A stretch of 64,000 nucleotides of DNA from an uncultured Clostridia bacterium (GTDB lineage: Bacteria > Bacillota > Clostridia > TANB77 > CAG-508). Location: positions 3,458 to 67,457 of the forward strand of contig CANRGN010000004.1 of the NCBI GenBank assembly GCA_947630235.1, given 5' to 3'. How positions within the stretch are numbered: position 1 is the first letter of the stretch; each line of letters starts with the position of its first letter. The notes beneath the pieces are model-generated. The model was not told the origin of the DNA. It searched no databases and saw only the letters and a program-made list of their open reading frames with translations. The translations under genes were made by a program, and so were the position numbers. Shown here one piece after another: positions 9,152 through 64,000 of this stretch.

Positions 9152-9191
9152 TTAATATAACTAATATGTTTTACAAAAGAAGGAAGGGAAT

Positions 9192-10454: not shown

Positions 10455-10495
10455 AAAATTAAAGTTAAATAGTATATATTAAAATAGAGGATAAT

Positions 10496-10858: not shown

Positions 10859-10992
10859 GAAAAATAATTTTATTTTAGTAATTGTTCGCTTTAAAATAAG
10901 AAAATGTTCACTATTGTTATTCAGTACAAAAGCTTTTCGCATATAGCCTGAATAAGAGCATTTTATAAATATTTAATAGGAGAAGATAATTT

Positions 10993-18000: not shown

Positions 18001-21000
18001 AGAATTTAGTACCACAAGTTTATTATGCTAATTCAACTAATCCAAGTGAAAGTGACTGGAACCTAATGACCAAAAATGAAAATGGTATTTGGACAGCGGA
18101 AAATCAAGATGTAAAAGCAGTAAAAGTAAAAATAGAATCAGGTATTGCAGAAAATTCAATTGTATATGTAGATATTAATATGACATCTCCAAAAAATACA
18201 GAAGTAGATAAGAAAACATATAATACATATACAATATCTTGCGAAGCTGTAGATTTATATACAGGATTGAAATCAACATATATGAAAAATTTACCAAGTA
18301 ATGTTGTAGAGGTACGTTTAGTAGAAAAGGAATATAACTTAGTAATTACCAAAACAGATGCTACAAGTGGAAAAAAACTTGCAGGTGCAGTATTTGCAAT
18401 TTATGATGAAGATAAAGAAATAAAATTAGGAAATATTACAGGGATACTTGGAGATACAGTTATAAAAGGTTTAAAAGAAGGAACATATACAATAAAAGAA
18501 AAAGTAACACCATTAGGATATGAAACAATAGATGATTATACATTAACAATAAAAGATGGAAAGTATACATTAAAATGTGGAGAGAAAGTGTTACAAAGTG
18601 AAGTTCTAATAGATTTACAAGAAACTATACCAACAATTTCTATAATTATAGAAAATCACAAAAAAACTGGAAGTATAAAAATACATAAAATAGATGAATA
18701 TCTAACTTCAGAAAAAGAAGAAGTTCCATTAGAAGGAATTCAATTTGATTTATTGACAACAGATGGCAAGGTAATATATACAGATACAACAGATGAAAAT
18801 GGATATATTACTTTTCAAAATTTAGAATGGGGAAATACATATATAGTAAAAGAGAAAGAAAAACAAAACGGATATAAATTAGCATTAGAAAATGTATATT
18901 TAAGTAGATTAGTAATAGATAAAGAAGTTGATATAAAAAACATTAGGGAGACAGGCAGTGTAACACTTGTTAAACAAGATGAGTTAGATGAATCAATAAA
19001 ATTAGCGGGTGCAAAATATAAATTATATGCAGAAAAAGATATTTATGATAAGGACGGAAATATTTTGTATAATCAAGGTGATTACATACAAGAAGCAATA
19101 ACTAACGAACAAGGTGAAGTAACGTTTGATGAATTAATTTGGGGAGATTATTATTTACAAGAAAGCGAAACTGTATATGGTTATGACTTATCTGAAGAAA
19201 AATATTCTTTCACAATTAGTGCAGAAAATGTGGAAAACTCAATTCAATTTACAGAGAAAGAAAAAAGAAGTAAAGCTAAATTACAATTGATAAAAGTAGA
19301 CGAAGATGGTAGCTTTTTACCAGGAGCAGAATTTGGATTGTTTAAAGGAAATGGAGATGAAGATGGCGATCAGATAATAAATAGAAATGTGGAAACTGGG
19401 GAAGAAGAGTTAACATTCACATCTCCAGAAGCAACAGTGGATACATACGGATGGAAACAAAATGATGATGGAACATGGCAGAGTGAAAATTATAAAAAAA
19501 GTAATTCTACTGCAACAATGGTATCAAATGAATTTACATTAAAGTATGATGGAAAGATAAGTTTTGATTGGTCAGTATCATCTCAAGGAGTATCAAATGA
19601 TTACGTATATTATACAATTATAAGCGAAGATATTGAGAAATCAATAGGAGGAGAAGAAACTAAAATAGGAGGAACAACAAGAGGATATGGATATGACTCA
19701 TTAACGTATGATAGAGTAGTACTACAACTAGAAAAAGGAACATACAAAATAAAATTCATCTATAAAAAAGATGATTCATCAGATAGTTCGTTAGATAGTG
19801 CATATGTAAAAAATGCAAAAGTATCATATGAACAAATAGAAGAATTTCCAAATATTACGGATTCAAATGGATTGTTAAATATAGAAGGATTGGAATGGGG
19901 AGAATACTATATACAAGAAATAAAACCACCACAGGGGTATGTAATAGATAATGCAAAATATAGATTTTCAGTAAATAGGGAAACATTTAAAGATGGTCAT
20001 AAAGCTGTAACTACAGTATCAAATGTGATGACAGGTGAACAGATATCAAAAATAAAAAATACTAGAAAAAGGGGAAAAGCAACTCTAATAAAATATAGAT
20101 ATGATGAAGAAGGAAATGAAACAACAGAAGCATTAGAAGGAGCTGTATATGAGTTATATTCAGCAGATGGAAAAATAGTAAATACACAAACAGAAAATGG
20201 AGAAGCAGTAACTGAACATACAACGAATGAAGAGGGAAAAATAACAGTAGATAATCTAGATTGGGGAAGTTACTATTTCCAAGAAAAACAAGCACCGGAA
20301 GGATATAGTATATCTGATAAAAAGATAGCATTTGTAGTAAATGGTAAAAATGTAGATTTTGAACAACAATTGGTAGCATATGATAAACAAGAATCAGGAG
20401 AAATAAAAATAAACAAAACAATAAGTGCAGAAAGCATATATAATGGACATGGAAATGCAACATTTATATTCAAAATAGTAGGAAAAGATAAAAATGGTAT
20501 AGAAAAAATTGTACAATATAGAACAGTAACATTTACAGAACTAGATTTAGAAAATATTGATGAACATGGAAATATAACAAAAACTATAACAATGCAGGAT
20601 ATACAAGCATACACATACGAAATAACAGAGGAAGCAAATTATCGATATGAATTAGATGTAATAACACCTGGAAAAAATGCAAGTGTGGATGGTAACAAAG
20701 GAATAATAGATTTATCACAAGTTACAGAAAAAAAAGAGGGAGAAATAACTTTTTCAAATAACAAAAATAATAATAGCTTATTATCAGATAATGGATTAAT
20801 AACAAATTCAGTACAAAGTCAATATTACTTAATTGGTATATCTGCCGAACCAAAGAAAGATAATTATGAAGTTGGAAATGAGTTAACAGCTGAGGATTTT
20901 ATATATACACTATACTATTCAGGAGGACAAGAAGAAGTAAAAGAATTAAGAGAAGGAATAACTTTTAATGGAAAATCTACGTATTCAGAAGAACAAATAG

Positions 21001-49387: not shown

Positions 49388-51190
49388 TTGAAAAAAGGAA
49401 TTAGAAATTTGGCAATGTGGCTAGTTTTAATAATTCTTGCAGTTGTTATATTTAGTGCAGCTATGAACAATGCTTCAACTAAAATGAATTATTCAGAACT
49501 TGTAAATAATATTGCTGCAGGAAAAGTAGAAAAAATAGTATTATCATCAGATGGTACAGTAGCAGATGTTACAATTAGTGATGATAATGTAGCTAAAGAA
49601 GTTACAATACCTAGTGTTGATAATTTAATGAATCAAATTAATCAAAAAATGGTGGATGGAGCAATTGAACTTGATCAGGAAGAAACTTCAATGATAGTTA
49701 CATTATTAAGTGTATTTTCACCAGTATTAATTCTTATAGTATTTTTAATATTCTGGGTATTATTAATGAATCCAAATCAAGGAGGAAAAAATTCTTCAAT
49801 GACATTTGGAAAGAGCAAAGCTAGAATGATTAATAATACAGATAAAACAAAAGTTACATTTAAAGATGTTGCTGGTGTAGATGAAGAAAAAGAAGAATTA
49901 GAAGAGATTGTAGAATTTTTAAAATCACCAAAAAAATTCACAGATATGGGTGCTAGAATACCAAAAGGTGTTTTACTTGTTGGTCAACCTGGTACAGGTA
50001 AAACATTACTTGCAAAAGCTGTTGCAGGAGAAGCTGGTGTTCCTTTCTTTATAATAAGTGGATCGGATTTCGTAGAAATGTTCGTTGGTGTTGGTGCATC
50101 AAGAGTTAGAGATTTATTTGATCAAGCAAAGAAAAATGCACCATGTATTATATTTATAGATGAAATTGATGCTGTTGGTCGTCAAAGAGGTGCTGGACTT
50201 GGTGGAGGACATGATGAAAGAGAGCAAACATTAAATCAATTATTAGTTGAAATGGATGGTTTTGCTGCAAATGAAGGTGTTATAGTTTTAGCAGCTACAA
50301 ATAGACCTGATGTTTTAGATAAAGCATTACTTAGAGCAGGAAGATTTGATAGACAAATTGTTGTTGGAAGCCCTGATGTTAAAGCTAGAGAACAAATATT
50401 AGAAGTTCATGCTAGAAAGAAACGTTTAGCAAGTGATGTTGATTTAGGTACAATAGCTAAAAATACAGCAGGTTTCGCTGGTGCAGATTTGGAAAACATA
50501 TTAAATGAAGCTGCTTTACTTGCTGCAAGAAGAAATAAGAGTGAAATTGGAATGGTAGAAATAGAAGATGCTATGGTTAAAGTTACAATGGGACCTGAAA
50601 AGAAAACAAAAGTAATTAGTGATAAAGAGAAAAAACTAGTTGCTTTCCATGAAGCTGGTCACGCTGTTGTAAGTAGATTTTTGCCAACACAAGACAATGT
50701 GCATCAAATTTCAATAATACCTAGAGGTATGGCTGGTGGATATACTATGTATAGGCCATCTGAAGATAAATCATTTATGTCAAAATCTGAAATGGAAGAA
50801 AATATAGTATCTTTACTTGGAGGTAGAGTTGCAGAACAATTAGTTTTAGGAGATATATCTACTGGTGCAAGCAATGATATTGAAAGAGCTACAAAAATTG
50901 CTAGAGCAATGGTTACAAAATATGGTATGAGCGAAGTTTTAGGAGCTATTCAATATGGTTCTGGTCAAGAAGAAGTATTCTTAGGTAGAGATTTTGCACA
51001 AGGTAAAGACTTTAGTGAACAAACATCAGCTTTAATAGATTCAGAAGTTAAGAAGATAGTTGATACAGCATATCAAACTGCAGTTAAATTATTAACAGAC
51101 AATATGGATAAATTACATGCAGTAGCTACTGTTCTTATGGAAAAAGAGAAAATTGATGGAGTTGAATTTGAGGAAATAATGAATAAATAA
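49388..51190 (+). CDS. ftsH: ATP-dependent zinc metalloprotease FtsH
   Basis: Walker [24 protein letters not shown], the SRH region, and zinc site HEAGHA. TTG start after RBS aggagga. Confidence 0.97.
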
Positions 51191-51211
51191 TTAACTGTAA
51201 AAAGTTTTAAG

Positions 51212-51242
51212 AAAAATGAGCGAAAATTTCGCTCATTTTTTT
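51212..51242. terminator. Intrinsic terminator after ftsH, embedded in a longer palindrome of about 33 bp per arm
   Basis: aaaaatgagcg-aaaattt-cgctcattttttt, with outer arms ctgtaaaaa...tttttacag. Confidence 0.85.
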
Positions 51243-51306
51243 CTTAGAAATTTTTACAGTTATTTGCTTTAATTATAGTGGTTATAATTTTAAGCAAATA
51301 GACAAT

Positions 51307-51348
51307 AAAAAAACACATCTGTAACTTGATGGTTTGATGTGTTTTTTT
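51307..51348 (+). terminator. Second intrinsic terminator
   Basis: aaaaaaacacatc ... gatgtgttttttt. Confidence 0.7.
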
Positions 51349-51492
51349 ACATATTAAACTGGCAAACTACGTTTGTGGTTTCTTCATTTTCTATATTTAG
51401 TATATAAATTCTTTAATTTTTTGTCAATCACTTTTTTACTCTTACAAGTTTGATTATATTTATAAAGAAAAAATATCATAAATAAAAAGTTT

Positions 51493-51537
51493 AAATAGGA
51501 AATAGGTGAATAACCACTTATTTCCTATTTATTTTTT
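51493..51537 (+). terminator. Third intrinsic terminator, immediately upstream of the kinase/helicase operon promoter
   Basis: aaataggaaataggtg-aataac-cacttatttcctattt followed by atttttt. Confidence 0.75.
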
Positions 51538-51540
51538 CTA

Positions 51541-51569
51541 TTGAAAAAAAATTTTTTTATTGATACAAT
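51541..51569 (+). promoter_or_regulatory. Sigma-A promoter of the six-gene operon
   Basis: TTGAAA, 17 nt, then TGaTACAAT, 29 nt upstream of ATG 51598. Confidence 0.55.
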
Positions 51570-51597
51570 ATAAAAAAATATATTTAGGAGAACGATT

Positions 51598-53253
51598 ATG
51601 GAAAAAGAATATTTGAATTATTTAAAGTTTTTATCTGCTAATTCAAATGTAACTGTTAGGGAAAAATTATATCCTATTATTGAATATGTATGCTTGAATT
51701 TAAAAGATGATTGTAAAGGAGCTATAATTAAAATTAGGGAATTTCTAAATCTAATGGAAAAATGTATAGGAAGCTCTAAAATTAGAAAAGCTCACTTAAG
51801 TGATACGGAGTTGGGATTAATAGATGAATTCAAAAATTTAAATGAAAATGAACCATTTTCTGAAGATTTGTATTCTAAAGAATTGAAACTTTTAGAGATA
51901 ATTTATAAAGTATGTTCTAAATTTTTGGGAAGAAAAGAATATATTTCTTATTTTAGCTGTTTAGAAAAATATAATGATATATATAGTAAAGTTAAAAGTT
52001 GTATAAGAAATTACAAAGTGGATCCCGTTACTTCTGTTAGTGATTTAAGAACTGCTTTGGTTAATTTTTGCCATTTAGTTGAAAAAAGAGAACATCAAAA
52101 TATTCCAAGAGGTACTGGAGAAAATAAAGCTGCTATAGATATGTTAAAAAAACTCAATATGATAAATAGTTCGGAAAAAGAGATTTTTGATGAGTTAATT
52201 TCAAATAGAAATTCACTAACATATAATGATGCTAATAATAAAAAGACAATAAATAAAGTTATAAATGAAAATGGAGAGATAGAAAACGATTTAGAAATCC
52301 ATAGATATGTAAGGAATTTACATGATGCTTTAATAATTTTTTATAGATTGGTAAATAGATATTTTACTAGTCATTATAATGAAAATTTTGACTTCCCAGA
52401 AGAATACTTTCCTATAGGTGATGCAGAAGTATTATATGCTGAACCAAATAGAGACAGACAATTTGGTCAACATAATTGTACATATTATATTAAAAAACCA
52501 GGTGGATATGAAGGATTCAGTCAAGAAGCAATTATTAGGGAATATGCTGATATTGAATTAGAAAATAATTTAAATCATAATAACACAGGTGTAATAATAA
52601 CTCAAAATTTAGAATATGAGGAAGATAAGAAATATTTTTTAGATGAGTTTAGTATTCCTACAGCAAATACTTCTTATTATAAATATATTGGATATCATAG
52701 AAATAAAGGATACATACCTTTAAAATATGCTATGAATCTTACAACTAAACAAGCAACAGAAGTTTTAATTCAAATTGCAAATGCACTTGAAGTTTTGAGA
52801 AAGGTTGAGCCAGTTATATATCATAGAAATTTAAGTACTCAAACTATTTTATTTAAATTTGATAGAGAAGGAAAAGTAAATATTAAAATTGGATATTTCG
52901 AGTTAATTAAGATAAATAGTGAGCAACCGACAGTTAGTGATAGAATTAGAGAAAATAATTTTCTTCCTAAAGAGGTTATGCACAATGCTGATATTAGAAA
53001 TAGAAATTATGATTGGTCTAAGTTTGATATATATTCTATGGGAATAATATATTTATATTTATTACTTCATAGAGAGGTTAGCATTATAGGAAGTGTTGAG
53101 AATTATATGGATAATTTAACAGAATTAGTAAATTCTATTGACGTAGATAAGGATATTAAAGATTTAATTATAAGTATGTGTAATTTACCTTTATTAAGAT
53201 GTAATTTAGATACATGTATACAAAAATTAAAAGAAATTAATGAAAAAATATAA
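51598..53253 (+). CDS. Helical N-terminal domain fused to a degenerate protein-kinase-like (pseudokinase) domain
   Basis: RBS aggaga. The C-terminal half keeps the kinase scaffold but has altered catalytic motifs: YHRNLSTQTILF (HRD to HRN), IGYFEL (in place of DFG), LPKEV (in place of APE) and DIYSMGIIYLYLL (the DxWSxG-like helix F). Confidence 0.65.
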   Translation: MEKEYLNYLKFLSANSNVTVREKLYPIIEYVCLNLKDDCKGAIIKIREFLNLMEKCIGSSKIRKAHLSDTELGLIDEFKNLNENEPFSEDLYSKELKLLEIIYKVCSKFLGRKEYISYFSCLEKYNDIYSKVKSCIRNYKVDPVTSVSDLRTALVNFCHLVEKREHQNIPRGTGENKAAIDMLKKLNMINSSEKEIFDELISNRNSLTYNDANNKKTINKVINENGEIENDLEIHRYVRNLHDALIIFYRLVNRYFTSHYNENFDFPEEYFPIGDAEVLYAEPNRDRQFGQHNCTYYIKKPGGYEGFSQEAIIREYADIELENNLNHNNTGVIITQNLEYEEDKKYFLDEFSIPTANTSYYKYIGYHRNKGYIPLKYAMNLTTKQATEVLIQIANALEVLRKVEPVIYHRNLSTQTILFKFDREGKVNIKIGYFELIKINSEQPTVSDRIRENNFLPKEVMHNADIRNRNYDWSKFDIYSMGIIYLYLLLHREVSIIGSVENYMDNLTELVNSIDVDKDIKDLIISMCNLPLLRCNLDTCIQKLKEINEKI

Positions 53254-53271
53254 AAGGATTGAGGAAAGAAT

Positions 53272-54111
53272 ATGGCAGATTTAGATTATAATTTGAGAAG
53301 AAAGTATAATAGAATTGATACAATACATGAAAATCCAAATACTAATGTTAAGTTTTGGATTGGAAAAGATGAAGTTTTATGTAGACTAGTTGGGATAAAG
53401 GAGTTTCCATTACAAAATGATAAAGAAAATCAAGTAAGAAATGAAATAATAACTAATATTAATTTTTCAAGAATAACACCATATATTCCACAAGTATATG
53501 AATATTTTGTGGATTATAGAAATAGAAAAATATATATTGTTTCTGAATATGTTGGTGAAAAAAATTTAAGAAAAGCAATAAATAATAATGAAATAAATGA
53601 AAAAAAAGCATTTGATATTATTGAAAAATTAATTTACATATTAAATAGTATTCAAAAAAAATTTAACCACATAAATCATAGAGATTTAAAACCTGAAAAT
53701 ATATTATTAGATAAATCAGGAAATGTATATTTAATAGATTTTGGATTGACTGCTATACCTTTAATTTATGGTGAGGGAACAAATGGATATAAAGCACCAG
53801 AACAAAGCAATGGAAGATCAGCTGATGGATTTTTGAAGGTAGATCAATATGCTTTAGGAATAATGTTTTGTGAATTATTATTAGGATATCTTCCTACATA
53901 TGGAACTGATTTTTTAAATGGAAATTCTGAAATGAGAGAACAATTTCCGTTAGTTCAAAATTTAAAAGCTAAAGGATACACAAATAATTTCGTAAATTTC
54001 ATATTTAAATTAATAAATAATAATCCTAGTGATAGGTATCGTAATATGGAAGAGGTTTTATTTCAATTGAAAGGTTTTAAAAAGAATAATTATGGAAAAG
54101 CTAAAAGATAA
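53272..54111 (+). CDS. Hanks-type Ser/Thr protein kinase (catalytic domain only, weak Gly-loop)
   Basis: LVGIKEF (VAIK Lys), HRDLKPENILLD, IDFGLT, GTNGYKAPE, DQYALGIMFCELLLG and PSDRY. Confidence 0.85.
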   Translation: MADLDYNLRRKYNRIDTIHENPNTNVKFWIGKDEVLCRLVGIKEFPLQNDKENQVRNEIITNINFSRITPYIPQVYEYFVDYRNRKIYIVSEYVGEKNLRKAINNNEINEKKAFDIIEKLIYILNSIQKKFNHINHRDLKPENILLDKSGNVYLIDFGLTAIPLIYGEGTNGYKAPEQSNGRSADGFLKVDQYALGIMFCELLLGYLPTYGTDFLNGNSEMREQFPLVQNLKAKGYTNNFVNFIFKLINNNPSDRYRNMEEVLFQLKGFKKNNYGKAKR

Positions 54112-54236
54112 AATAAAAAATAGATTATTTAAAATGAGTATAGCAAATAACAAATATGATTTGCCTGTAAAACTAGATAAAGATTTCTTTAAAAGAGAAA
54201 ACGCTGAAAAAAATAAAATGATAATAAGGAGATAAG

Positions 54237-57200
54237 ATGGAAAATCGTTTATGGCCAGATAACCAATATCTAAATTTAAATGATATAAGTCCAAATAAAA
54301 GTATTGATTTTTATTTTACTAGTGTATTAGATAAATTAATAGAAACATATAAAGAAAATAGAGTAAAATCTTTATTAGAACATACGGCATCAAAAGGTTA
54401 TTTTTTAATTTATTATAGAGAAGATTCTAATCATGAACCTACTATTAACATATTAATTGATAATCTTTTGGATGATAGTATTGATGATTTAGTTTTTACT
54501 GTTGCATTAAGTAGAAATATTGAAGCTAATGAAGAAGATGATGAAAGAAGATTGATGATTACATATTCTCAAGAAAAAGATATAAATACTGGACATTATA
54601 TGGCTGAAAGCGGTATTTTGGTAAAATGTAATAATATTTCATTTTCTCGAATTGCAACAGGTGGTAATTTAACTGTATATGGAAATAAAAAAAGTGAGAG
54701 TTTTAATCCAGAAGAGTTATTTAATATTTTTAAAGAAAAAAGATTGCACAAGGTTGAAAAAAAAGAAAGTAAAAAAACTATTTGTAATGAATGGGCAAAT
54801 ATTTTAAAATATGCAAAAGATTTTACAGATCTGGAAGATAATCTTGAAAGAATAGCTTTAGTATCAAAAACAACTTTAAATTATACTAAATTTGAAAGTG
54901 TTTTTCAAAATGTGGATTCTGATGTTAGATATAAATTTTTTGTAGATAGTATAGGAAAACAAGGATATGAAAAAGGAATAGGAATAGATATAAATGATAC
55001 CTTTGGAACATTAAAAAGACCAATCGGAGGTAAGATTTCTGAAATAGATAAGAATGAAAATAGTATTGTTGTTTCTTTCCCTAATCAAATTAGTGTAGAA
55101 AAAATTCCTACAAGTGGAACTATTTCTCTTACATATACTAATGTTCAATCTCGTGTTAGAAATAATGTTATTTCATCTATGAGAAATTTAGAAAAAGGTG
55201 AATATTTAAATGATATTTTTGCTAATGGAGGAAAATGTTTAGAATTTGAAAATATTGATTTAAGTGCTTTAGAAGAAAAATGGAAAAGAAAGCAACAAGA
55301 AGTTGATAGGATTAAATCTCTACCTAAAGAAGAACAGAAGAATTTTAAGATTGATTATCCACCTACAGATTCTCAACAAATAGCTATAAAAAATGGTATA
55401 AAAGCAAAAGATTTTTATTTAGTTTGGGGACCTCCTGGAACTGGAAAAACAACTGTTATATTGGAATGGGTAAATTATTTTGCTAGTCAAGGAAAAAAAG
55501 TTTTAATATCTTCTCAAAATAATAAAGCAGTTGATAATGTATTAGAACGTTTACCAGAAGAAATAAGAGAAAATAGTATTAGAATTGGTAACGAAGATAA
55601 AATTCAAGAAAATAATAGAGAAGTTTGGTATCAACAAAAAGTAAGTAGTTTAAGTAATTTATTAGAAAAAAATGTTGAAAAGAATAAGGTATTATTTGAT
55701 GAAAAAATTACAGGGATAAAAGATAAACATAAAAAATTAAAAGAGTATCAAAATGAATTTGAAAAATTATTTAGTAATTATAATTCTGATATTTTAAATA
55801 AAATTATTGGTGATTTTAATTATTTTTTAAAAATGGCAAAAGAAACGTATTTAAAATACATTAATGTTTCTATGGAAATAGAATATATTGAAAATAAGAT
55901 TCCTAAATTACCTTTTTTAAAAATTTTTTTTAAAAGTAAATATAGAGATAAATATTATACTCAAAAAGCATTAGTAAATTCTTATAATAAGTATATTGAT
56001 GCAATTTTAGATATAGATAAGGAAATGATTGTAAATGATTTAGAAGAATTTATTAAAACACACGAATTTGTAGATAAAAATGTAGAATCTTTTTATGTTA
56101 GTAGAATGACAGATATAGGGTTTATAGTAAGAGTAAAAGATTATCTGAATAATAGTATAAAAGAATGTGAAAAAGTAATTGAAGAATTAGAAGTTTTAAT
56201 TCAAGGAAATAAAGAATGGGAAGAACAAATTAAAAAAAGAAATGATGCAATAACTTCAGAAATTATTTTAAAATCAACAAGAGTAGTAGGTGCTACTTGT
56301 ATAGGAATAAGTACTAGAAGAATATTTCAAAATATTGATTTTGATATTTCTATAATAGATGAATCAGGTCAAATTCAATTGCATAATGCTTTAGTTCCTA
56401 TGGCTAGAAGTAATAAAACTATTATGTTAGGTGATCACAAACAGATTCCACCTAGTCCAAAAGAAGAAATTTTATCTGTTATAAAAGAGTTAGGAATACC
56501 TCTTGAACAGAAATTATATGAAAATAGTTTCTTTGATTATTTATATACAGATTTAATTGATGAAAAAAATAAAACTATATTAGATACACAATTTAGAATG
56601 CCAGGTGAAATTGCGGATCTTTTATCAATATATTTTTATGAGAGTAAATATAAATCAGCTGAATTTAAAAGAGGGTTACCTCCTTTAGTAGATTTTCTTG
56701 AAAAACCATTTTGTTTAATTGATACTTTGGATTATGGAAAAATGAGGTTTGAGAATAGCAAAGAAGAAGGAGGAGGAAGAGTAAATAAGCTTGAGTGTGC
56801 AATTATTATAGATTTAGTTGAATATTTACTCGATAATAATAAAGTTGAGAAAAATGAAATTGGTATAATAGTTCCGTATAAAGATCAATTAAGATATATA
56901 AGAAAATCTTTGAATGAAAGATTTAAAAATAAATATCAGGCTTCAGAAATTAAAGATATGGTTGGTACATTAGATAGTTTTCAAGGACAAGAACGTGATT
57001 TAATTATATATGGAATTACTAGAAGTAATAAAAGACCACCAGATAAACAAAGAATAGGATTCTTATCTGAACTTAGAAGATTTAATGTAGCCTTATCTCG
57101 TCCTAAAAAACAAGTTGTTATTGTTGGTGATTTTGAGTTTTTAAAAGAATGTGAAAATGAAGGAAATGTGAAGATTGATGATGATATAAATGATGATCAA

Positions 57201-57362
57201 TATACATATAAACCAAGTACTGAAAAAGATTTTGGTGAATTTGTAAAAGCTATGTATAAAGACGTAGTAGAAGATAAGAAGGGAAGTTTTATAAAATCTA
57301 AAGATTTATATAGAAGAATTGGTAAAGGAGGTCCTAAATTTGAGCAAAAAAAGCAAAAATAA
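54237..57362 (+). CDS. Upf1/DNA2-like superfamily 1 helicase (AAA_11/AAA_12 type) with an uncharacterised N-terminal region of about 390 aa
   Basis: Motif I WGPPGTGKTT, Ia SSQNNKAVDNV, II IIDESGQ, III LGDHKQIPP, IV LDTQFRMP, V LDSFQGQERDLIIY, VI RRFNVALSRPK. Confidence 0.85.
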   Translation: MENRLWPDNQYLNLNDISPNKSIDFYFTSVLDKLIETYKENRVKSLLEHTASKGYFLIYYREDSNHEPTINILIDNLLDDSIDDLVFTVALSRNIEANEEDDERRLMITYSQEKDINTGHYMAESGILVKCNNISFSRIATGGNLTVYGNKKSESFNPEELFNIFKEKRLHKVEKKESKKTICNEWANILKYAKDFTDLEDNLERIALVSKTTLNYTKFESVFQNVDSDVRYKFFVDSIGKQGYEKGIGIDINDTFGTLKRPIGGKISEIDKNENSIVVSFPNQISVEKIPTSGTISLTYTNVQSRVRNNVISSMRNLEKGEYLNDIFANGGKCLEFENIDLSALEEKWKRKQQEVDRIKSLPKEEQKNFKIDYPPTDSQQIAIKNGIKAKDFYLVWGPPGTGKTTVILEWVNYFASQGKKVLISSQNNKAVDNVLERLPEEIRENSIRIGNEDKIQENNREVWYQQKVSSLSNLLEKNVEKNKVLFDEKITGIKDKHKKLKEYQNEFEKLFSNYNSDILNKIIGDFNYFLKMAKETYLKYINVSMEIEYIENKIPKLPFLKIFFKSKYRDKYYTQKALVNSYNKYIDAILDIDKEMIVNDLEEFIKTHEFVDKNVESFYVSRMTDIGFIVRVKDYLNNSIKECEKVIEELEVLIQGNKEWEEQIKKRNDAITSEIILKSTRVVGATCIGISTRRIFQNIDFDISIIDESGQIQLHNALVPMARSNKTIMLGDHKQIPPSPKEEILSVIKELGIPLEQKLYENSFFDYLYTDLIDEKNKTILDTQFRMPGEIADLLSIYFYESKYKSAEFKRGLPPLVDFLEKPFCLIDTLDYGKMRFENSKEEGGGRVNKLECAIIIDLVEYLLDNNKVEKNEIGIIVPYKDQLRYIRKSLNERFKNKYQASEIKDMVGTLDSFQGQERDLIIYGITRSNKRPPDKQRIGFLSELRRFNVALSRPKKQVVIVGDFEFLKECENEGNVKIDDDINDDQYTYKPSTEKDFGEFVKAMYKDVVEDKKGSFIKSKDLYRRIGKGGPKFEQKKQK

Positions 57363-58560
57363 AAATACCGAAAAAGTACATTTTGGTTTTAATGTAATAG
57401 AAGATTTTAAAAAATTTATAGATGAACATCCTCAATTAGGGGCTCCAAAATATTTTTATTATCTAGCATATCCTATAGCAAAAGTGGAATTAGATATAAT
57501 GGAAAATGTTATAGAGAATTTTGAGGTATTAGAAAAATATATTTTAACTTTTTTTATTTCGTCTTCAATAGATTTTAGTGATATAGAAAACATTACGGGA
57601 ATACCAAATGAAACTATAAAATCTGTTTGTAAAACATTACAAGTTACTGGTCAAATTGATAATGACTTTAAAATTACTAAATTAGGAAGAAAATCTTTGA
57701 AAGAAAGTAAGAAATATACAAATGTAAAAAGAAGAATGATGGTTTTAGTAGATGGAGTTACTGGTGTTATTTTAGACGAAAGTTCTATATATGAGAAGTT
57801 TATGAAAGAGGGACAAGTTACAGCTTATAAAAAAGTACCAATGCTAATTCCAAAGGAAAACTTTACGGAAGAAAATTTTTCACAATTTTATGAAAATTTA
57901 AATTTTAATGATGAAGATGTTATATCAACAAATTTTGATTCAATAAATAGAGCTAATCCAATAGGTTTGTATTATATTCCTCTTTATTTTGTGGGGTTCG
58001 AAAATTTAAAATCACCACTTCTACTAAAAGAGTTTAATAAAAAATTTGCTCCAGTATATATAGTAGAAGATGATAGAGAATTATTTAGAGAAAAATGTTT
58101 GTGTGTAAGTAATAAAAATATAGATTTATTAGAAAAAGTGCTTAAAGAAATTTCTTCATATTATAATAAAAAAGAATTAAAATCTTTCTTAAAGGAAATA
58201 GATGGTGTTAGTTTAGAAAATGAATCTTTTGTAAGACATGTAAAAGCTGGTAAGAAAATATCAGGTAAAGAATATTCTGTACCAGACGAATATATAGGAG
58301 AAAATGAATACTCAGAATATCCTGTGCCTTTAGAATATGTAAATGGTTATATATTTTATTTTCAAAAGGATTATCAAGAACCAGAGAATGATTCTGATAC
58401 TGAAGATGAAAATAATAATAATGAAAATGGAGATAATGAAATTGATGAAAATAGTGATGGAATTGAAGATAATAAAGAAAATTCAGAAAACAATGAAATA
58501 AAAGTAAATGATAATGAGAGTGATGAAATAGAATCTGATGAAAACAAGGAGGAAAATTAG
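57340..58560 (+). CDS. Hypothetical protein with a putative winged-helix segment and a long Asp/Glu/Asn-rich C-terminal tail
   Basis: RBS aaaggagg lies 8 nt before TTG 57340. The track start at 57319 is in the same frame. The gene overlaps the helicase stop by 23 nt. A wHTH-like stretch is FEVLEKYILTFF...IENITGIPNETIKSVCKTLQVTGQI, and the tail is ENDSDTEDENNNNENGDNEIDEN.... Confidence 0.6.
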   Translation: MSKKSKNKNTEKVHFGFNVIEDFKKFIDEHPQLGAPKYFYYLAYPIAKVELDIMENVIENFEVLEKYILTFFISSSIDFSDIENITGIPNETIKSVCKTLQVTGQIDNDFKITKLGRKSLKESKKYTNVKRRMMVLVDGVTGVILDESSIYEKFMKEGQVTAYKKVPMLIPKENFTEENFSQFYENLNFNDEDVISTNFDSINRANPIGLYYIPLYFVGFENLKSPLLLKEFNKKFAPVYIVEDDRELFREKCLCVSNKNIDLLEKVLKEISSYYNKKELKSFLKEIDGVSLENESFVRHVKAGKKISGKEYSVPDEYIGENEYSEYPVPLEYVNGYIFYFQKDYQEPENDSDTEDENNNNENGDNEIDENSDGIEDNKENSENNEIKVNDNESDEIESDENKEEN

Positions 58561-58562
58561 TT

Positions 58563-58973
58563 ATGGATATTCTTCTTATATTACTAAAATTTTTTCTTCA
58601 GTTTTGTCTTATATGTTTGGGATTTTGTGTTGGATTGGTATGGTTATGTATAAAATTTGTTGCTAAGCTTATATGGAAGTTAATATTAAATATTCCAAAT
58701 ATATTAAAAGCTTTATTAGGCTTTTGTTGGAAATTGATAAAATCGATTGGTGCAGGAATTTGGAAATTAGTTTTAAAGATACCAGATGGTTTAAAATTTA
58801 TATTTTCAAAATTGTGGAATTTAATAAAATATATATTTTCACATATATGGACGGGGATAAAATTTGTATTTTCTCATATATGGATGGGAATAAAATTTGG
58901 TGCTAACTGGCTTTTGAATTTTATAAAGCGGAATTCCTGGTTATATAAAATTAGCTATATTATTTGTATATAA
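58563..58973 (+). CDS. Small membrane protein built from Trp-containing amphipathic repeats
   Basis: The ATG lies 2 nt after the previous stop, and its RBS aaggagg sits inside the upstream gene. An N-terminal TM helix is followed by repeats of the type (I/L)W(K/N)L(I/V)L.IP and IFSHIW.GIKF (the latter twice in tandem). Confidence 0.6.
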   Translation: MDILLILLKFFLQFCLICLGFCVGLVWLCIKFVAKLIWKLILNIPNILKALLGFCWKLIKSIGAGIWKLVLKIPDGLKFIFSKLWNLIKYIFSHIWTGIKFVFSHIWMGIKFGANWLLNFIKRNSWLYKISYIICI

Positions 58974-59010
58974 TATATATACTAAATATTTATTTGTAGT
59001 TAGCCCGCAA

Positions 59011-60129
59011 ATGATTGCATTTTGGGTAGTAGTAACTTTAATAGTTATAATAAGTATTATAAGAGATAAAGAACTTAATTTTTTTGAAATGATATGTTTT
59101 GGAATATTGTTTTTTTCAATTGGACTATTTTTACCAGGTATTTTGCCTTTTACTTTAAGTGTTCACTGTATGGCTATTAAGAATATATGGATACCAGTAT
59201 TAGTATTTTTTATAATTGCAATATTGTCTTTCTTAAGTATAATTTTTACAGAAAAAGATATTCTTTTAAGAAATTATCTTCCTGTATTTTTTAGTTATCT
59301 TGTTGCCAGTGAACTTATAGAATTTATATTTAATGATAATATGGCATTTAAAATTTTAAGATCTGTATTAGTAACCATAAGTTTTGCAAATTTATATGTT
59401 ATTATTGAAAAAAAAGTTTATTTTAAATTTTTTAATTTTATTATGATAGGGATTACATCATATCTATATGTTTTTGGTTACAAATTATTTTTTATACCTT
59501 TGATATTTTTATTTTTAAAAGAAACATATTTTCATTTAGCAAATTTTGAAGGCAGTTTGAAAAATAATCATGAAAGATTTAAAGTTTTACATTGGATAAT
59601 GTTTTTATTAAATTTAGGAAGCTTACATTTTGTTAATTGTTATCTTAAAGGTTCAAAATTATTAAGTATTTCTAATGGTGAAATATTATTATTAAGTGTT
59701 TATTTTATAATAATATTTAAATATTTTTCTATAAAAATCAGAATAGAAAAAATTTCTAATAATTTAGAAAATAAATTAGTAAGTATTAATGAATTGAATA
59801 GTACATATTCTGTAGCTAATGTAAAAATTAAATTAGATATAAATTATGTAGATGGTTATATTTTGTACAATATAAATGAAAAAAAATTATATATTATTAC
59901 TGGTAATGAATTTGCAGAAGATTTTCTTGATTATGCATTAGTAATAGATAATATTGAAAAAGTATACCAAAGAAATAGAATATATATTATTAAAAATTCT
60001 TTAAATCAAGAAATAATGGTTGATGATATTAATAATTCGATTAATAAGAACTTTTTTGGAAATATTCTTCTTGAAGAAAGTATTGAAGAAAGTGAATTAT
60101 TTGATTTAAAAAATGTTTTATATAATTAA
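59011..60129 (+). CDS. Polytopic membrane protein (about 8 predicted TM helices) with a soluble C-terminal domain of about 120 aa
   Basis: 372-codon ORF, co-directional, 37 nt after the previous gene. The start has a weak or absent RBS, so the start is uncertain. Confidence 0.55.
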   Translation: MIAFWVVVTLIVIISIIRDKELNFFEMICFGILFFSIGLFLPGILPFTLSVHCMAIKNIWIPVLVFFIIAILSFLSIIFTEKDILLRNYLPVFFSYLVASELIEFIFNDNMAFKILRSVLVTISFANLYVIIEKKVYFKFFNFIMIGITSYLYVFGYKLFFIPLIFLFLKETYFHLANFEGSLKNNHERFKVLHWIMFLLNLGSLHFVNCYLKGSKLLSISNGEILLLSVYFIIIFKYFSIKIRIEKISNNLENKLVSINELNSTYSVANVKIKLDINYVDGYILYNINEKKLYIITGNEFAEDFLDYALVIDNIEKVYQRNRIYIIKNSLNQEIMVDDINNSINKNFFGNILLEESIEESELFDLKNVLYN

Positions 60130-60131
60130 TT

Positions 60132-60176
60132 GTCAGATGGACGTAGCAGATTCTACTTCCATCTGACTACTTTTTT
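60132..60176 (+). terminator. Intrinsic terminator closing the six-gene operon
   Basis: gtcagatgga ...16 nt... tccatctgac followed by tactttttt. Confidence 0.8.
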
Positions 60177-60346
60177 GTATATTTTTTATATTTCTAAACA
60201 TATTATATATTATAATATTTCGTCAAATATTATATAGACTTTGGAGGTTTAAATCCACCTCTCTCGTGTTTAAAATATACCAACCATAAAGAAAATTTAA
60301 TAAAATGAAGTAATCATCTATATTACAGAGTTCCTTTTATATAGTG

Positions 60347-61702
60347 TTATCCTAGTAATCCAGTCATATATACTGGCAAATAGACTATTCCTTTTTCTTC
60401 TTTATAATCTCCTGTATGGATAATGTATGGAGTGTCTAAATATTGTTTGTATTTTTTTATAAATTTATTTAATGAATTTGTTGTATAATTTTTACCTGAT
60501 TTCACTTCTATTGGTGAAATATTATGCCTACTTGTAATTTTACTTTTTTGAACTAAAAAATCAATTTCCATTCTATCTAAGTTATTTTCTCTTGAAGAAT
60601 TCGAGTAAAAATACAAACCATTTCCATTTGAGACCAACATTTGTGCAACTATATTCTCCATGAACATTCCTTCATTGAACTCTAATTTGTCAAATAATAT
60701 TTTTTTATATATTTCTTCACTCATTATACCTTTTTCATCAAAAGTATGTGAAATTAATAGACCAGTATCCCCCATATAGCATTTCATTGATACTAAATCT
60801 GTATTCATTTTAAGACCAACATTTGGTTCTGTAGTGTTAAATGCATTGTTAACAATCATGCTATCATTTAACCAAAAAATGGCATCATCATAATCTCTAT
60901 ATTTTGCACCTTTTTCTATTGATGCTAGTTTAAATTTTTTTTCATGTTTTTGTAATTGCGAAGGAATTTGATTGAATATACTTCTTACTTTTAAAGAATA
61001 ACCTCCTGTATGTTTTGCAATATCATCTTTATATAAATCCAATATTATTCTTTTTTGTCTATCAACTTGATTAAAATCTTTTGTTTTTGCAAATATTTCA
61101 ACTGCTTGAGGCATTCCTCCAACTAACATATATTGTCTAAATAAATCCATTGCCTTTCTGTGTATTAGCTGACCTACTTCTTTTTTATCACCATACAACT
61201 TTTTTATTGTTGGCATAAGAGTATTATCACCAAGCGCCCATAAGAATTCTTCAAAATCTAATGGATACATTTTTATATGTTCTTCTTCAGATGGGATTAA
61301 AATATCTTTTACATTTTCTTTTATAGAAATTAATGAGCCAGTTTCTATATAGTCATATCTTCCATCTGCAACTAAGTGTTTTATTGCTGATCTTGCTCTT
61401 GGAAACAATTGAACTTCATCTAAAATAATTAAGCTATCTCGTTTATATAGCTGTACTGAAAAGTATGTAGATAGCATCATAAAAAATGTGTCTAAATCGT
61501 CTAAATATTGATTAAATAAGTCTTTTACTTTGTCATTTGCTTTACTAAAATCTATTAGTATATATGATCTATAATTATTTTTTGCAAATTCTTCTGCAAT
61601 ATAACTTTTTCCAACACGTCTTGCACCTTCTATTAAAAGTGCAGTTTTTCCACTGCTTTGTTTTTTCCATTCTACTAACTTATCATATACCTTCCTTTTC
61701 AT
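60347..61702 (-). CDS. AAA-family ATPase of the AAA_14/DUF4143 type
   Basis: Walker A EGARRVGKS and Walker B IILDEVQ. The overall length and the C-terminal IDF...EVK motif are typical of DUF4143 ATPases. RBS ggagg lies 9 nt before ATG 61702. The track start at 61744 lacks an RBS. Confidence 0.75.
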   Translation of the reverse strand: MKRKVYDKLVEWKKQSSGKTALLIEGARRVGKSYIAEEFAKNNYRSYILIDFSKANDKVKDLFNQYLDDLDTFFMMLSTYFSVQLYKRDSLIILDEVQLFPRARSAIKHLVADGRYDYIETGSLISIKENVKDILIPSEEEHIKMYPLDFEEFLWALGDNTLMPTIKKLYGDKKEVGQLIHRKAMDLFRQYMLVGGMPQAVEIFAKTKDFNQVDRQKRIILDLYKDDIAKHTGGYSLKVRSIFNQIPSQLQKHEKKFKLASIEKGAKYRDYDDAIFWLNDSMIVNNAFNTTEPNVGLKMNTDLVSMKCYMGDTGLLISHTFDEKGIMSEEIYKKILFDKLEFNEGMFMENIVAQMLVSNGNGLYFYSNSSRENNLDRMEIDFLVQKSKITSRHNISPIEVKSGKNYTTNSLNKFIKKYKQYLDTPYIIHTGDYKEEKGIVYLPVYMTGLLG

Positions 61703-61740
61703 AACACGATTCCTCCAATACATATATCTATTTATATGAT

Positions 61741-61866
61741 ACACTTTTTCAAGATTTATTTCAAGTACATTTTACACCTTTTCAAAGTTTTTATACAACA
61801 TTTTTTACACCTTTTCAAGGTTTTTATATAACATTTTTTTACACCTTTTCGAGATTTTTGACAAAA
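61741..61866. repeat. Three to four tandem 31-34-bp repeats upstream of the ATPase gene, each carrying TTGAAAAGGTGTAAAA on the minus strand
   Basis: attttacaccttttcaaagtttttatacaac / attttttacaccttttcaaggtttttatataac / atttttttacaccttttcgagatttttgac. On the minus strand adjacent units form TTGAAA, 17 nt, TATAAA. Confidence 0.8.
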
Positions 61867-62393: not shown

Positions 62394-62506
62394 AAAAGAG
62401 TAAGATAAGATTTTTTATAAAAATTGATAATATTTTACTTTATATATAACAAGTAAAATTAAAATTGCATAACAAAAGAAAAATATAGAAATACAAAGGA
62501 GAAAAA

Positions 62507-62608
<102 letters not shown>

Positions 62609-62643
62609 TACCCTTTAAAAGAAGAAAAAAATATAAAAATTTA

Positions 62644-62670
62644 GGTTAGGCAATTTTGTCTAGCTTTTTT
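62644..62670 (+). terminator. Intrinsic terminator of leader cassette B
   Basis: ggttaggc-aatttt-gtctagc(t) followed by a T6 run. It is homologous to the terminator at 13632. Confidence 0.65.
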
Positions 62671-62950
62671 GTGATGTTTAAAAATATCAAAATATAAAGA
62701 AAAATATAGTGATGATAAAAATATAGCTAAGGATTGAGATTCGATTATTAGATATAGATAGCTATTTTTTATTCGATATGGAATTTGTTTACTAAAATAT
62801 CGGAATTTTAAATAATCAACTTATTTGAGTTTTTAATGTATATAGATTATGTTTATACTCTTTTGCTATTTATGAAAGTGTATATGTAAAGGTTTATAGG
62901 TAAAGCCATTATTAAAAACCTAAATATGTTATACAAGGATTGGTGATAAT

Positions 62951-64000
62951 ATGAAAAAGAACAGTAGAAAAGTATTAATAGTAACATGGATTTTAGTGGT
63001 GATAGTTATATTAGTTGTATGTGTAGTGGTAGTAATGAAAAATAATCAATGGTTTGGAAGAGAAGAAGTAACTAAAACTGCTAATGGGGGAAAGGCAGAT
63101 ATGTTGGCGGATACATATGAAGATGCGACTGAAAATAAAAAATCTAACCCAGATGCAGAAACAAAGAAAAAAATAATGGAAGAATTATCAAAAGGATGGG
63201 ATTATAGTAAAGTAACAGCTGTTGAAGTAAAAATTAGTAGTAATAATACTGATGGAAGTGAAAGTAATGTAGTAAACAGTGAGAAAAATGGTGAAACAGA
63301 AACAATGAAAATTCCTGTTCCAGTAGGATATACAGCATCACAAATAGAAGGAGAGAATACAGTTGATGGCGGATTTGTAATATATGAAGGAAGCGAATCT
63401 GTAACGTCTGATAATAAAGAAACAGCACAAAAAGAAAGAAACCAATGGGTATGGGTGCCAGTATATAATCCAAGTGATATGTATGGAGTAGATAGTAATG
63501 GAAAAATGTGTGGAAAATTATATAATTTTGATAGCAATGGAAGAACTAATGATAATTGGTCTGAGAAAGAGGGAAAAATAAATATAACAAGTAAAACTGG
63601 TGATAGAGAGCCTGACTTGTTAAGTAGTTATGATAAAGATGATTATCTATCAAGATATTTATCTGAAACAGATAAAGAACAGTTAGGTAAAGAATTAAAA
63701 AATACATTTGAAAAAACAATAGAAAGCATAAAAAAATATGGTGGCTTTTATATAGGGAGATATGAAACAGGTGGATTAAATGGAACAGCAAAGGTAGTAA
63801 AAGGAGATACAGATATATCAAGTCAAACATGGTATACAATGTATGAAAAATGTAAAGCATTAAAAGGTGAGAATAGAAATGTAGAAACAAGTATGATATG
63901 GGGATGCCAATGGGATAGAACATTGCAGTGGCTTGTGGATACGAAAACTAAAGAATATAAAGACGTAGGCTTAGATTCTATTGATTGGGGAAATTTTTTA
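62951..64000 (+). CDS. Membrane-anchored secreted protein, 3' end cut by the window edge; tentatively FGE-sulfatase-like domain
   Basis: ATG 62951, then 350 codons with no stop to the window end. There is an N-terminal TM helix. Motifs IPVPVGY, NQWVWVPV, GGFYIGRYE and MIWGCQWDRTLQWL are reminiscent of SUMF1/FGE-type domains. The ORF is absent from the ORF track only because it has no stop. Confidence 0.65.
   Translation, partial: MKKNSRKVLIVTWILVVIVILVVCVVVVMKNNQWFGREEVTKTANGGKADMLADTYEDATENKKSNPDAETKKKIMEELSKGWDYSKVTAVEVKISSNNTDGSESNVVNSEKNGETETMKIPVPVGYTASQIEGENTVDGGFVIYEGSESVTSDNKETAQKERNQWVWVPVYNPSDMYGVDSNGKMCGKLYNFDSNGRTNDNWSEKEGKINITSKTGDREPDLLSSYDKDDYLSRYLSETDKEQLGKELKNTFEKTIESIKKYGGFYIGRYETGGLNGTAKVVKGDTDISSQTWYTMYEKCKALKGENRNVETSMIWGCQWDRTLQWLVDTKTKEYKDVGLDSIDWGNFL

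Follow-up and report, generated by a model that had tools for sequence, protein, structure and literature searches.

This locus raises the question of whether a compact block of six genes, found downstream of ftsH in an uncultured Clostridia bacterium, is an undescribed defence system or a form of one that already has a name. The block occupies positions 51598-60129 of a stretch of 64,000 nt from contig CANRGN010000004.1 (assembly GCA_947630235.1), and this whole stretch is called the window hereafter. A preliminary description had read the block as a terminator-insulated operon encoding a candidate for an unnamed system. Our best explanation, to which we give a probability of roughly 0.55, is that of an anti-phage cassette on the chromosome, a relative of type I Mokosh that is split into separate genes, lacks the nuclease and is equipped with a lineage-specific membrane accessory effector.

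Six co-directional open reading frames (ORFs) on the + strand, of 551, 279, 1041, 413, 136 and 372 aa, were present in the ORF listing at the coordinates and lengths claimed for them. They are referred to in their order as proteins 1 to 6, protein 4 also being called B. Together with a micro-ORF, the genes are as follows.

51598-53253, + strand: protein 1, pseudokinase of 551 aa ('K450' family); Pfam Pkinase at 7.7e-09 over the C-lobe only, PADLOC MkoA serine/threonine kinase (STK) part at 2e-14.

53272-54111, + strand: protein 2, Hanks-type Ser/Thr kinase of 279 aa with the catalytic domain only ('K280' family); Pfam Pkinase at 1e-28.

54092-54235, + strand: micro-ORF of 47 aa, MEKLKDKIKNRLFKMSIANNKYDLPVKLDKDFFKRENAEKNKMIIRR, beginning within the 3' end of the kinase gene and ending 1 nt short of the helicase ATG.

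54237-57362, + strand: protein 3, Upf1-like superfamily 1B (SF1B) helicase of 1041 aa, MkoA-like and with no fused kinase; AAA_11 at 2.9e-41, AAA_12 at 7.9e-41.

57340-58560, + strand: protein 4 (B), 406 aa from TTG 57340 or 413 aa from 57319; ribosome-binding site (RBS) AAAGGAGG before TTG 57340.

58563-58973, + strand: protein 5, small membrane protein of 136 aa, an orphan; starts 2 nt past the B stop behind a strong RBS, AAGGAGG.

59011-60129, + strand: protein 6, polytopic membrane protein of 372 aa, an orphan; residues 1-245 contain about 8 hydrophobic segments and are followed by a C-terminal soluble domain of about 125 aa.

The intergenic gaps of 18, 125, 2 and 37 nt had been given correctly. 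The second of them keeps its spacing and loses its supposed emptiness, since the 47-aa ORF sits inside it. Likewise, the overlap of 23 nt between the helicase gene and gene 4 corresponds to the TTG start at 57340, from which B has 406 aa, while the earlier length of 413 aa is right when counted from the first in-frame start at 57319. TTG 57340 was also the start chosen by the gene caller on L001, an independent assembly of the same organism.

Type I Mokosh consists of a protein that joins a helicase to an STK domain (MkoA) and a phospholipase D (PLD) nuclease partner (MkoB), and its defence is lost when either the helicase ATP site or the PLD site is mutated (Millman et al. 2022). A link to Mokosh had been drawn for the present block, and the PADLOC MkoA and MkoB profiles proved it correct. 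All PADLOC matches are reported here as profile scores and not as system calls. The helicase matched MkoA at 6.7e-107, both kinase-fold proteins aligned with the STK part of MkoA, and B aligned with the N-terminal third of MkoB. Because the core maps onto the components of Mokosh type I, the block is a variant of a named system rather than a new kind, and the label of an undescribed system had to be given up. The block is very probably a split, PLD-less relative of Mokosh.

Protein 3 matched the PADLOC MkoA model PDLC03920 with the above value over residues 167-982, model PDLC03921 at 1.8e-80 and the IGHMBP2-family profile at 1.1e-64. Its layout comprises a beta-rich domain at 15-150, a stalk and 1B barrel at about 184-372, and a RecA1/RecA2 core with a long insertion at 378-965. 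The Walker A motif GPPGTGKT (398-405), DE 708-709, Q712, R920 and R947-R955 were invariant in 24/24 helicase homologues. An AlphaFold2 model of residues 1-372 reached a predicted local distance difference test (pLDDT) score of 74.6, and Foldseek returned IGHMBP2 (2e-4) followed by Upf1 (3e-3), Senataxin and Dna2. The AAA_11 and AAA_12 profiles and the Foldseek matches to the stalk and 1B barrel thus uphold the helicase as Upf1-like. The preliminary description had assigned to it an N-terminal domain of about 390 aa, which it called unknown. This does not apply to residues of about 184-372, which form the Upf1/IGHMBP2 stalk and 1B barrel, and it does apply to the beta-rich domain of about 15-150, for which Foldseek gave no match and PADLOC none to the extra ~150 aa. 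The conserved positions in the N-terminal part were mostly hydrophobic or structural; hence this part does not look like an enzyme active site. More than 500 helicase relatives were found at E <= 1e-10. The best 120 were almost all of 1000-1085 aa, and none of these 120 carried a Pkinase domain on the helicase polypeptide.

The kinase domain that is fused to the helicase in MkoA is therefore present in trans, since protein 2 is homologous to the MkoA STK part (1.3e-18). This protein also matched the PADLOC models PD-T4-6 (9e-30) and mad6. The motifs earlier reported for it were all in place, with HRDLKPEN at 136, DFG at 156 and APE at 175. In the alignment of its family, Lys43, Glu58, Asp138, Asn143, Asp156 and Pro176-Glu177 were invariant in 42/42 members, and the Ala of APE was kept in 37/42. 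Upstream of K43 no canonical glycine-rich loop (GxGxxG) was seen. The reading of protein 2 as an intact kinase is well founded in these invariant residues, from which it is predicted to be an active Hanks-type Ser/Thr kinase.

Protein 1 is built of a lineage-specific segment (1-100), a family-conserved N-terminal region (about 100-250) and a degenerate kinase fold (about 290-550), as judged from its conservation profile. The mutated motifs noted before, HRN at 409 and YFE at 433, were found again. They are no peculiarity of this genome: among 41 family sequences M, A, L, N, S or F stood at the catalytic Asp position and K, N or Y at that of the DFG Asp, with Asp at neither in any sequence, while the HR motif was retained in 38-41/41 and the F-[ED] marker was kept as well. 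The pseudokinase assignment accordingly extends to the whole family (41/41 degenerate). Because the substitutions were consistent throughout while HR was kept, protein 1 is a conserved pseudokinase and not a decayed copy.

B begins with a module made of a beta-hairpin and a winged helix. Behind this module come a small C-terminal subdomain and, at 365-413, a poly-acidic/Asn tail that is disordered. The winged helix-turn-helix (wHTH) and the acidic tail that had been noticed earlier were recovered by Pfam and in the AlphaFold2 model. Against the PADLOC MkoB model PDLC03922, B scored 1.9e-12 over profile positions 5-203 of 610 only, with 45 bits as compared with 226 for canonical MkoB. Comparison of the B family with the canonical Nostoc MkoB by hhalign gave a probability of 96.5% for B 43-153 against MkoB 23-136 only. 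As this match is confined to the N-terminal module, B amounts to the MkoB N-terminal module without the nuclease. An exhaustive HMMER search defined the family as 89 representative clusters, mostly of 410-440 aa; among the aligned members, 65/66 matched MkoB and 56/66 matched wHTH-PRTase_assc. A word-indexed search with protein 4, alone and then with a 5-sequence profile, retrieved no more than one protein besides the query, and no relative of it was confirmed in a metagenome scan.

No trace of the nuclease could be found. The motif HxKxxxxD was absent from all six frames of 51000-60400, and its presence in 2/88 B representatives is at chance level. None of the Pfam PLD families matched any B-family member (0/66). 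The AlphaFold2 model of B, made from the 66-sequence alignment, had a pLDDT of 74 (above 85 for most of 25-290) and showed long beta-hairpins around the winged helix, and Foldseek matched it only to a MarR-like wHTH of about 60 residues. The preliminary description was thus right that no PLD or other nuclease is detectable. A PLD or other nuclease hidden in B or in the helicase N-terminus was also considered and was rejected by the motif search, Pfam on the 66 members, hhalign and two AlphaFold2/Foldseek runs. Single transmembrane (TM) segments apparent in other B proteins were dismissed too, being the hydrophobic beta-strand YYPIA..VEV of the conserved domain rather than TM helices.

Two plasmid loci with fused STK-helicases, L051 and L052, served as canonical comparators: Clostridium botulinum pCB111 (L051, NC_025146.1) and Nostoc pNPM2. 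The Nostoc fused STK-helicase has 1184 aa, matches MkoA at 8.8e-214 and adjoins a CBASS operon; its MkoB partner of 475 aa contains PLDc_2 at 337-464 with HRKQVVCD at 419. On C. botulinum pCB111 a fused STK-helicase was accompanied by a 442-aa partner (7446-8774) that matched the PADLOC MkoB model PDLC03923 end to end (7e-48). This MkoB-like partner had neither HxKxxxxD nor a Pfam PLD match. Among the proteins that existing MkoB models already cover, at least one is thus without a detectable PLD, and the same may be true of a whole subfamily.

The missing nuclease suggests a reading in which the locus is a decaying, non-functional remnant of an ordinary type I Mokosh after loss of its PLD. Besides the absent PLD, the low-complexity acidic tail in which B ends and the C. 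botulinum protein without HxKxxxxD could be taken in its favour. We find this explanation scarcely credible. The split PLD-less architecture is kept in about 45 species, all ORFs of the block are intact with good RBSs, and the invariant catalytic residues of kinase and helicase, together with the consistent pseudokinase pattern, indicate purifying selection and not decay. From the family alignments, the PLD-less state is predicted to be ancestral to the family and not a local loss.

The micro-ORF between kinase and helicase is weakly conserved in sequence and strongly in position. L007, the nearest of the related loci, has a clearly homologous ORF of 42 aa in the corresponding position, and both peptides show MEKLKDK...NLPVK. 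In 31 related loci an ORF of 42-72 aa runs up to the helicase start. Common to these ORFs are an N-terminal stretch of amphipathic character, the core LP-x-x-[LI]-[ED] and, in many cases, a [DE]RW[RK]K end. Gene callers annotated genes of 45-56 aa at this position in L003, L004 and L006. The RBS of the micro-ORF in the window is weak. On the opposite strand, a 78-aa ORF at 54058-54294 was considered as a gene. Its peptide is low-complexity and hydrophobic; as it overlaps the micro-ORF and the helicase start and is reported by no gene caller, it was treated as probably spurious.

The order pseudokinase, kinase, micro-protein, helicase and B was kept in about 45 loci of Bacillota, some Proteobacteria and one archaeal metagenome-assembled genome (MAG). 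A species survey with one genome per species returned 43 loci, mostly of Bacillota (Paenibacillus, Bacillus, Ornithinibacillus, Tissierella, Ruminococcus, Selenomonas and Centipeda), the others belonging to Idiomarina, Aliidiomarina, three Betaproteobacteria, an Atribacteria MAG and a Methanosarcinales MAG. Helicase identity across phyla was about 31-36%. Four of the related loci (L003, L004, L006 and L007) illustrate the arrangement, with a protein of 440-530 aa, a kinase of about 280 aa, a tiny ORF, the helicase and a protein of about 410 aa in succession; proteins 1-4 were confirmed there by blastp. Iterative profile searches over all ORFs of 47 loci gave a uniform layout, with two kinase-fold genes per locus in 44 and B in 45. 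This conserved synteny suggests translational coupling. A helicase-B fusion of 1397 aa in L021 (Mesobacillus selenatarsenatis SF-1, 7509-11702), in which MkoA is matched at 239-971 and the MkoB N-terminal module at 1045-1233, provides independent evidence that helicase and B work together.

The conserved unit is five genes. No homologue of protein 5 or 6 was found among all ORFs of the 47 loci, and only genes 1-4 and the micro-ORF co-occur elsewhere, in the same order in about 45 loci. The six-gene operon, put forward earlier as the unit, therefore does not hold as such, because co-occurrence fails for both membrane genes. This bears directly on the earlier view that all six genes form one new, unnamed defence system with the membrane proteins as dedicated effectors. 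The block is indeed bounded by terminators and tightly spaced, it contains no nuclease, and membrane effectors are common in abortive-infection systems. On the other side, four of its six genes are members of a cassette that corresponds to Mokosh type I components, that cassette normally has no membrane gene, and the six-gene set was found only in assemblies of the same organism. Hence we regard the six-gene system as very improbable.

What proteins 5 and 6 contribute is a separate matter. In protein 5, a hydrophobic anchor at the N-terminus precedes about nine amphipathic repeats of 11 residues with periodic Trp, which agrees in hydropathy and repeat layout with its former description as a Trp-repeat membrane protein. 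It had no Pfam or PADLOC match, and its PHROG matches were weak (7e-06) and led to repeat regions of tape-measure proteins. Protein 6, whose approximately 8 hydrophobic segments were likewise seen again in the hydropathy profile, had no match in Pfam, PADLOC, NCBIfam or PHROG and no homologue in a metagenome scan. Its gene shows no obvious RBS and a GC content of 18.7% as against about 24%; it was also called in an independent assembly of the same organism. A CorA-like fold, in which a soluble N-terminal domain precedes two TM helices, was found for neither protein: there was no PADLOC or Pfam CorA match, and the topology is opposite, with the TM segments N-terminal.

The slot after B proved variable among related loci. 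In about 25/45 of them nothing is coupled to B, and the closest one, L007, ends inside B. A CorA-like membrane protein follows B directly in L010, L011, L036, L037 and L039 (gaps of -28 to 138 nt) and lies on the opposite strand in L022; the PADLOC models for CRISPR type III-associated CorA recognise these genes with values down to 1.9e-23. The CorA-like attachment was seen in both Bacillota and Idiomarina-type Gammaproteobacteria, and no CRISPR-Cas genes were evident in the stretches examined. An Hsp70-like gene stands 0-55 nt past B in L014 (11881-13395), L025 (11897-13435) and L045 (11839-13353). The ATPases encoded in these Lachnospiraceae/Butyrivibrio-type loci are truncated (504-512 aa, HSP70 ~1e-132, with a weak PADLOC PDC-M61B match), and they may, with a further shared gene behind them, form another accessory module of the cassette. 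A PD-(D/E)xK gene of the PDC-S26 type follows B in L030, and an EEP nuclease/phosphatase gene in L031. In Natranaerofaba carboxydovora, B itself bears a C-terminal 5-TM extension past its acidic linker. Homology of this TM domain to protein 5 or 6 was sought and rejected (best E = 0.18).

Because the slot after B is variable and because CorA-like genes and a B-TM fusion occur elsewhere, accessory membrane effectors are plausible. By analogy with those loci, proteins 5 and 6 may be functionally linked to the cassette, a link that we propose tentatively. The core can do without them, as such a gene is missing from most family members. The competing explanation is that the five-gene core is the whole system, with the kinase or host factors recruited by the helicase as its sole output, and that proteins 5 and 6 are unrelated passengers. 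It gains from the lack of homologues of both proteins in the 47 related loci and of protein 6 in the metagenome scan, from the fact that most loci end at B, from the missing RBS and lower GC content of gene 6, and from the absence of any defence-family match to either protein. It accords poorly with the 2 nt between B and protein 5, the strong RBS there and the lack of an internal terminator, and also with the recurrence of membrane proteins at the same position elsewhere (CorA-like ones in about 6 loci, and one B-TM fusion). We consider the passenger explanation rather doubtful.

The boundaries of the operon were examined by folding and by reading of the sequence, and the following signals were obtained.

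51216-51537, + strand: three successive intrinsic-terminator hairpins with T-runs, downstream of ftsH.

51216-51242, + strand: terminator hairpin 1; -14.1 kcal/mol, z -5.4 against shuffles.

51306-51349, + strand: terminator hairpin 2; -16.4 kcal/mol, z -4.9 against shuffles.

51492-51531 (to 51537 as annotated), + strand: terminator hairpin 3; -20.9 kcal/mol, z -7.0, also found by a motif scan.

51541-51569, + strand: promoter-like site TTGAAA-17-TACAAT with extended -10 TG; 10/12 matches plus TG, 29 nt before gene 1.

60132-60176 (60132-60167 folded), + strand: closing terminator with a 10-bp stem and a 4-bp stem, then a T-run; -20.8 kcal/mol, z -6.2.

A T-run directly follows each of the four hairpins, and all four fold far better than shuffled controls, in line with the three upstream terminators and the one downstream that had been reported. 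Scanning and folding of the block disclosed no internal terminator before 60132. The three upstream terminators are predicted to insulate the operon from upstream transcription. The claim of an insulated operon of defence-type components was thus borne out by the terminators and by the identities of the components. For the promoter, the motif proposed at 51541-51569 does exist. Promoter-like matches are about as numerous as chance predicts in this region of 24% GC (97 as compared with 92 expected), and the promoter call therefore depends on position only.

The surroundings of the block are those of a core chromosomal region. The genes rpoB, rpoC, gdpP, dnaB, tilS and ftsH lie upstream of it in the window, its GC content equals that of its neighbours, and no foreign base composition was seen. 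In view of this matching GC and the core-gene setting, there is no sign of recent acquisition. Mobile-element genes do not adjoin the block, no CRISPR array or RNA gene was found beside the operon (Rfam 0 matches; repeat search), and the window holds no cas genes. Carriage by a phage or prophage was rejected: relatives were missing from IMG/VR, and GenBank phages gave only generic helicase-core matches. On the - strand at 60347-61744, convergent with the operon, an AAA_14 + DUF4143 ATPase matches the PADLOC candidate PDC-S01 over its full length (4e-112). Downstream of ftsH, this PDC-S01-type ATPase and the cassette lie side by side as a small patch of two systems. Cas1, Csm3/Cas7, CARF, NERD-UvrD and PDC genes are scattered around related loci, an observation that is only suggestive because the scan of these flanks was made without a control set. 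Downstream of the cassette in the metagenomic locus L003 (14855-19140), a TraG/TrwB-like coupling ATPase, a ClpP-like protease and a Card1-like (CARF nuclease) protein resemble a defence-type module.

Such a setting might instead belong to a housekeeping or regulatory module for RNA surveillance and signalling, in which the helicase and the kinase/pseudokinase pair control RNA turnover or stress responses. Upf1-like helicases act in eukaryotic RNA quality control, and the core-gene neighbourhood with its matching GC, the lack of adjoining mobile-element genes and the many related loci without a strong defence neighbour would all suit this role. It is hard to reconcile with the patchy cross-phylum distribution at about 31-36% helicase identity, with the specific profile homology to both Mokosh proteins, with a slot after B that varies as in effector-swapping defence systems, and with the Cas, CARF, CBASS or PDC neighbours of several loci. 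We therefore hold a housekeeping role to be unlikely, and a defence role of the cassette, as suggested by its sequence relationships, to be probable.

If the cassette defends as an offshoot of Mokosh, it may work in the following way. The helicase and the nucleic-acid-binding B would use ATP to sense RNA of a phage or an RNA/DNA intermediate of its replication, as proposed for Mokosh. Without a nuclease, the signal would go to the kinase, which would act as the read-out. In eukaryotic kinase/pseudokinase pairs the pseudokinase serves as an allosteric partner or scaffold, and protein 1 may by analogy do the same for protein 2. The micro-protein may be a regulator or a substrate. Phosphorylation of host or phage proteins would then stop the infection in the manner of Stk2, in which phosphorylation reportedly leads to infection arrest. 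Loci with a downstream effector would activate it as well. Here proteins 5 and 6, coupled to B, would be this accessory effector, specific to the lineage, and would cause abortive infection by damage to the membrane or its depolarisation.

The anti-phage reading with a membrane accessory effector is favoured by the CBASS operon beside the canonical Nostoc comparator and by the PDC-S01 ATPase that adjoins the block here, as well as by the 2-nt gap and strong RBS between B and protein 5 and the absence of a terminator before 60132. Several points weigh against it. Defence is drawn from homology and context only, the block lies among core genes with the GC content of its neighbours, and the neighbourhood scan of the flanks lacked a control set. 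The sensing step is borrowed from a hypothesis about Mokosh itself. Since the PLD is essential in canonical Mokosh, a PLD-less relative may work quite differently or need a host nuclease. Finally, the membrane-effector step is one of analogy, because proteins 5 and 6 are orphans, protein 6 has no visible RBS, about 25/45 loci are uncoupled after B, and the B-TM fusion represents 1/88 B representatives.

A broader formulation is conceivable, and we offer it as a suggestion short of an even chance. The cassette would be a defence family in its own right, derived from Mokosh or arisen beside it, in which nucleic-acid sensing by the helicase is read out by the kinase/pseudokinase pair and a plug-in effector slot after B is filled by CorA-like channels, fused TM domains, Hsp70-like ATPases, nucleases or, at this locus, a pair of orphan membrane proteins. 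This pair and the CorA-like genes of sister loci suggest that helicase-based modules and those associated with CRISPR type III exchange effectors.

Mokosh is widespread, and the present family is a natural 'dissection' of it, with kinase, helicase and MkoB N-terminal module as separate proteins, the nuclease gone, and a pseudokinase and a micro-protein added. If the cassette does defend, its helicase-kinase axis gives immunity without PLD, which would show the task of the kinase and the purpose of the MkoB N-terminal module and would supply separable components for biochemistry. In the literature searched, and within the limits of that literature, we found no description of a split or PLD-less Mokosh or of a pseudokinase-kinase-helicase-wHTH cassette; none of the queried split-cassette genera carries a Mokosh label in the supplementary tables of Millman et al. 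Such loci may already be labelled Mokosh by automated tools, because the PADLOC MkoA and MkoB models match them and one MkoB model covers the C. botulinum member, in which no PLD was detected. As a practical warning, annotation based on hidden Markov models may call such loci 'Mokosh type I' though the defining nuclease is absent.

Other features of the window lie apart from the cassette. At and just upstream of the start of the DUF4143 ATPase gene, a 33-bp tandem repeat of about 3.6 copies occupies 61740-61859 (80-91% matches, consensus TTTTACACCTTTTCAAGGTTTTTATACAACATT) and could be a regulatory or operator-like array. A perfect intergenic (AC)23 dinucleotide microsatellite at 62560-62605 is possibly a phase-variation tract upstream of the next gene. 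This part is followed on the + strand, at about 62951-64000, by an ORF beginning MKKNSRKVLIVTWILVVIVILVV, which is open at the window end and encodes a signal-anchored, Ser/Thr/Glu-rich secreted protein; the strong purine skew of 62500-64000 is due to this ORF. Three very large + strand ORFs were also noted at 15054-23132, 35795-40615 and 233-4780. The one of 2692 aa, with BspA-type LRR_5 and SpaA/SdrD-like domains, resembles a surface adhesin, the one of 1606 aa contains Listeria-Bacteroides repeats, and the one of 1515 aa has no Pfam match at all.

Among known systems, Nhi (nuclease-helicase immunity) likewise uses a COG1112-type SF1 helicase in defence; Nhi is a single protein with a fused nuclease, whereas no nuclease domain and no PADLOC Nhi match was detectable here. 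Protein 2 resembles Stk2 of Staphylococcus and PD-T4-6 in being a Hanks kinase, as its PD-T4-6 score indicates. Those kinases stand alone and have their own sensor regions, while protein 2 is a bare catalytic domain inside a cassette.

The stalk, 1B barrel and RecA fold of the helicase are those of eukaryotic Upf1, IGHMBP2, Senataxin and MOV10L1. Mokosh has been proposed in the literature as the prokaryotic counterpart of the MOV10L1-PLD6 pair of the animal piRNA pathway; unlike that pair, the present cassette has no PLD6-like partner and is bacterial, kinase-associated and different in the N-terminal domain of its helicase. A likeness to the CorA and CARF-wHTH ancillaries of type III CRISPR is seen in the CorA-like gene that accompanies B in about 6 related loci, and in the wHTH of B, a kind that also occurs in the PRTase_III-A, CARF and Csa3 models. 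It does not extend to proteins 5 and 6, which are not CorA-like, and the window contains no array or cas gene and no cyclic-nucleotide or SAM-AMP signalling component.

Mokosh, which the literature describes as a helicase plus a PLD and as 'incompletely characterized', is the nearest of these systems. Type II Mokosh (MkoC, including E. coli YjhR) joins an N-terminal helicase to a C-terminal PLD in one polypeptide and lacks a kinase. The Upf1-like helicase core is common to both, and PADLOC MkoC was partially matched at 2.2e-35; the block differs from type II in having several genes and no PLD. From type I it departs in that the kinase is encoded by a separate 279-aa gene instead of being fused as in L051 and L052, in that a conserved pseudokinase gene and a micro-ORF between the kinase and helicase genes have been added, in the B family without a PLD domain and without HxKxxxxD beyond chance level, in the extra beta-rich domain of about 150 aa at the helicase N-terminus, and in the two membrane genes appended at this locus. 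With type I it shares a COG1112 Upf1-like helicase that has an MkoA-specific region upstream of its core, a Hanks kinase homologous to the MkoA STK part, and, directly downstream of the helicase, a partner gene with the MkoB beta-hairpin and wHTH module, in the same order as in the Nostoc locus.

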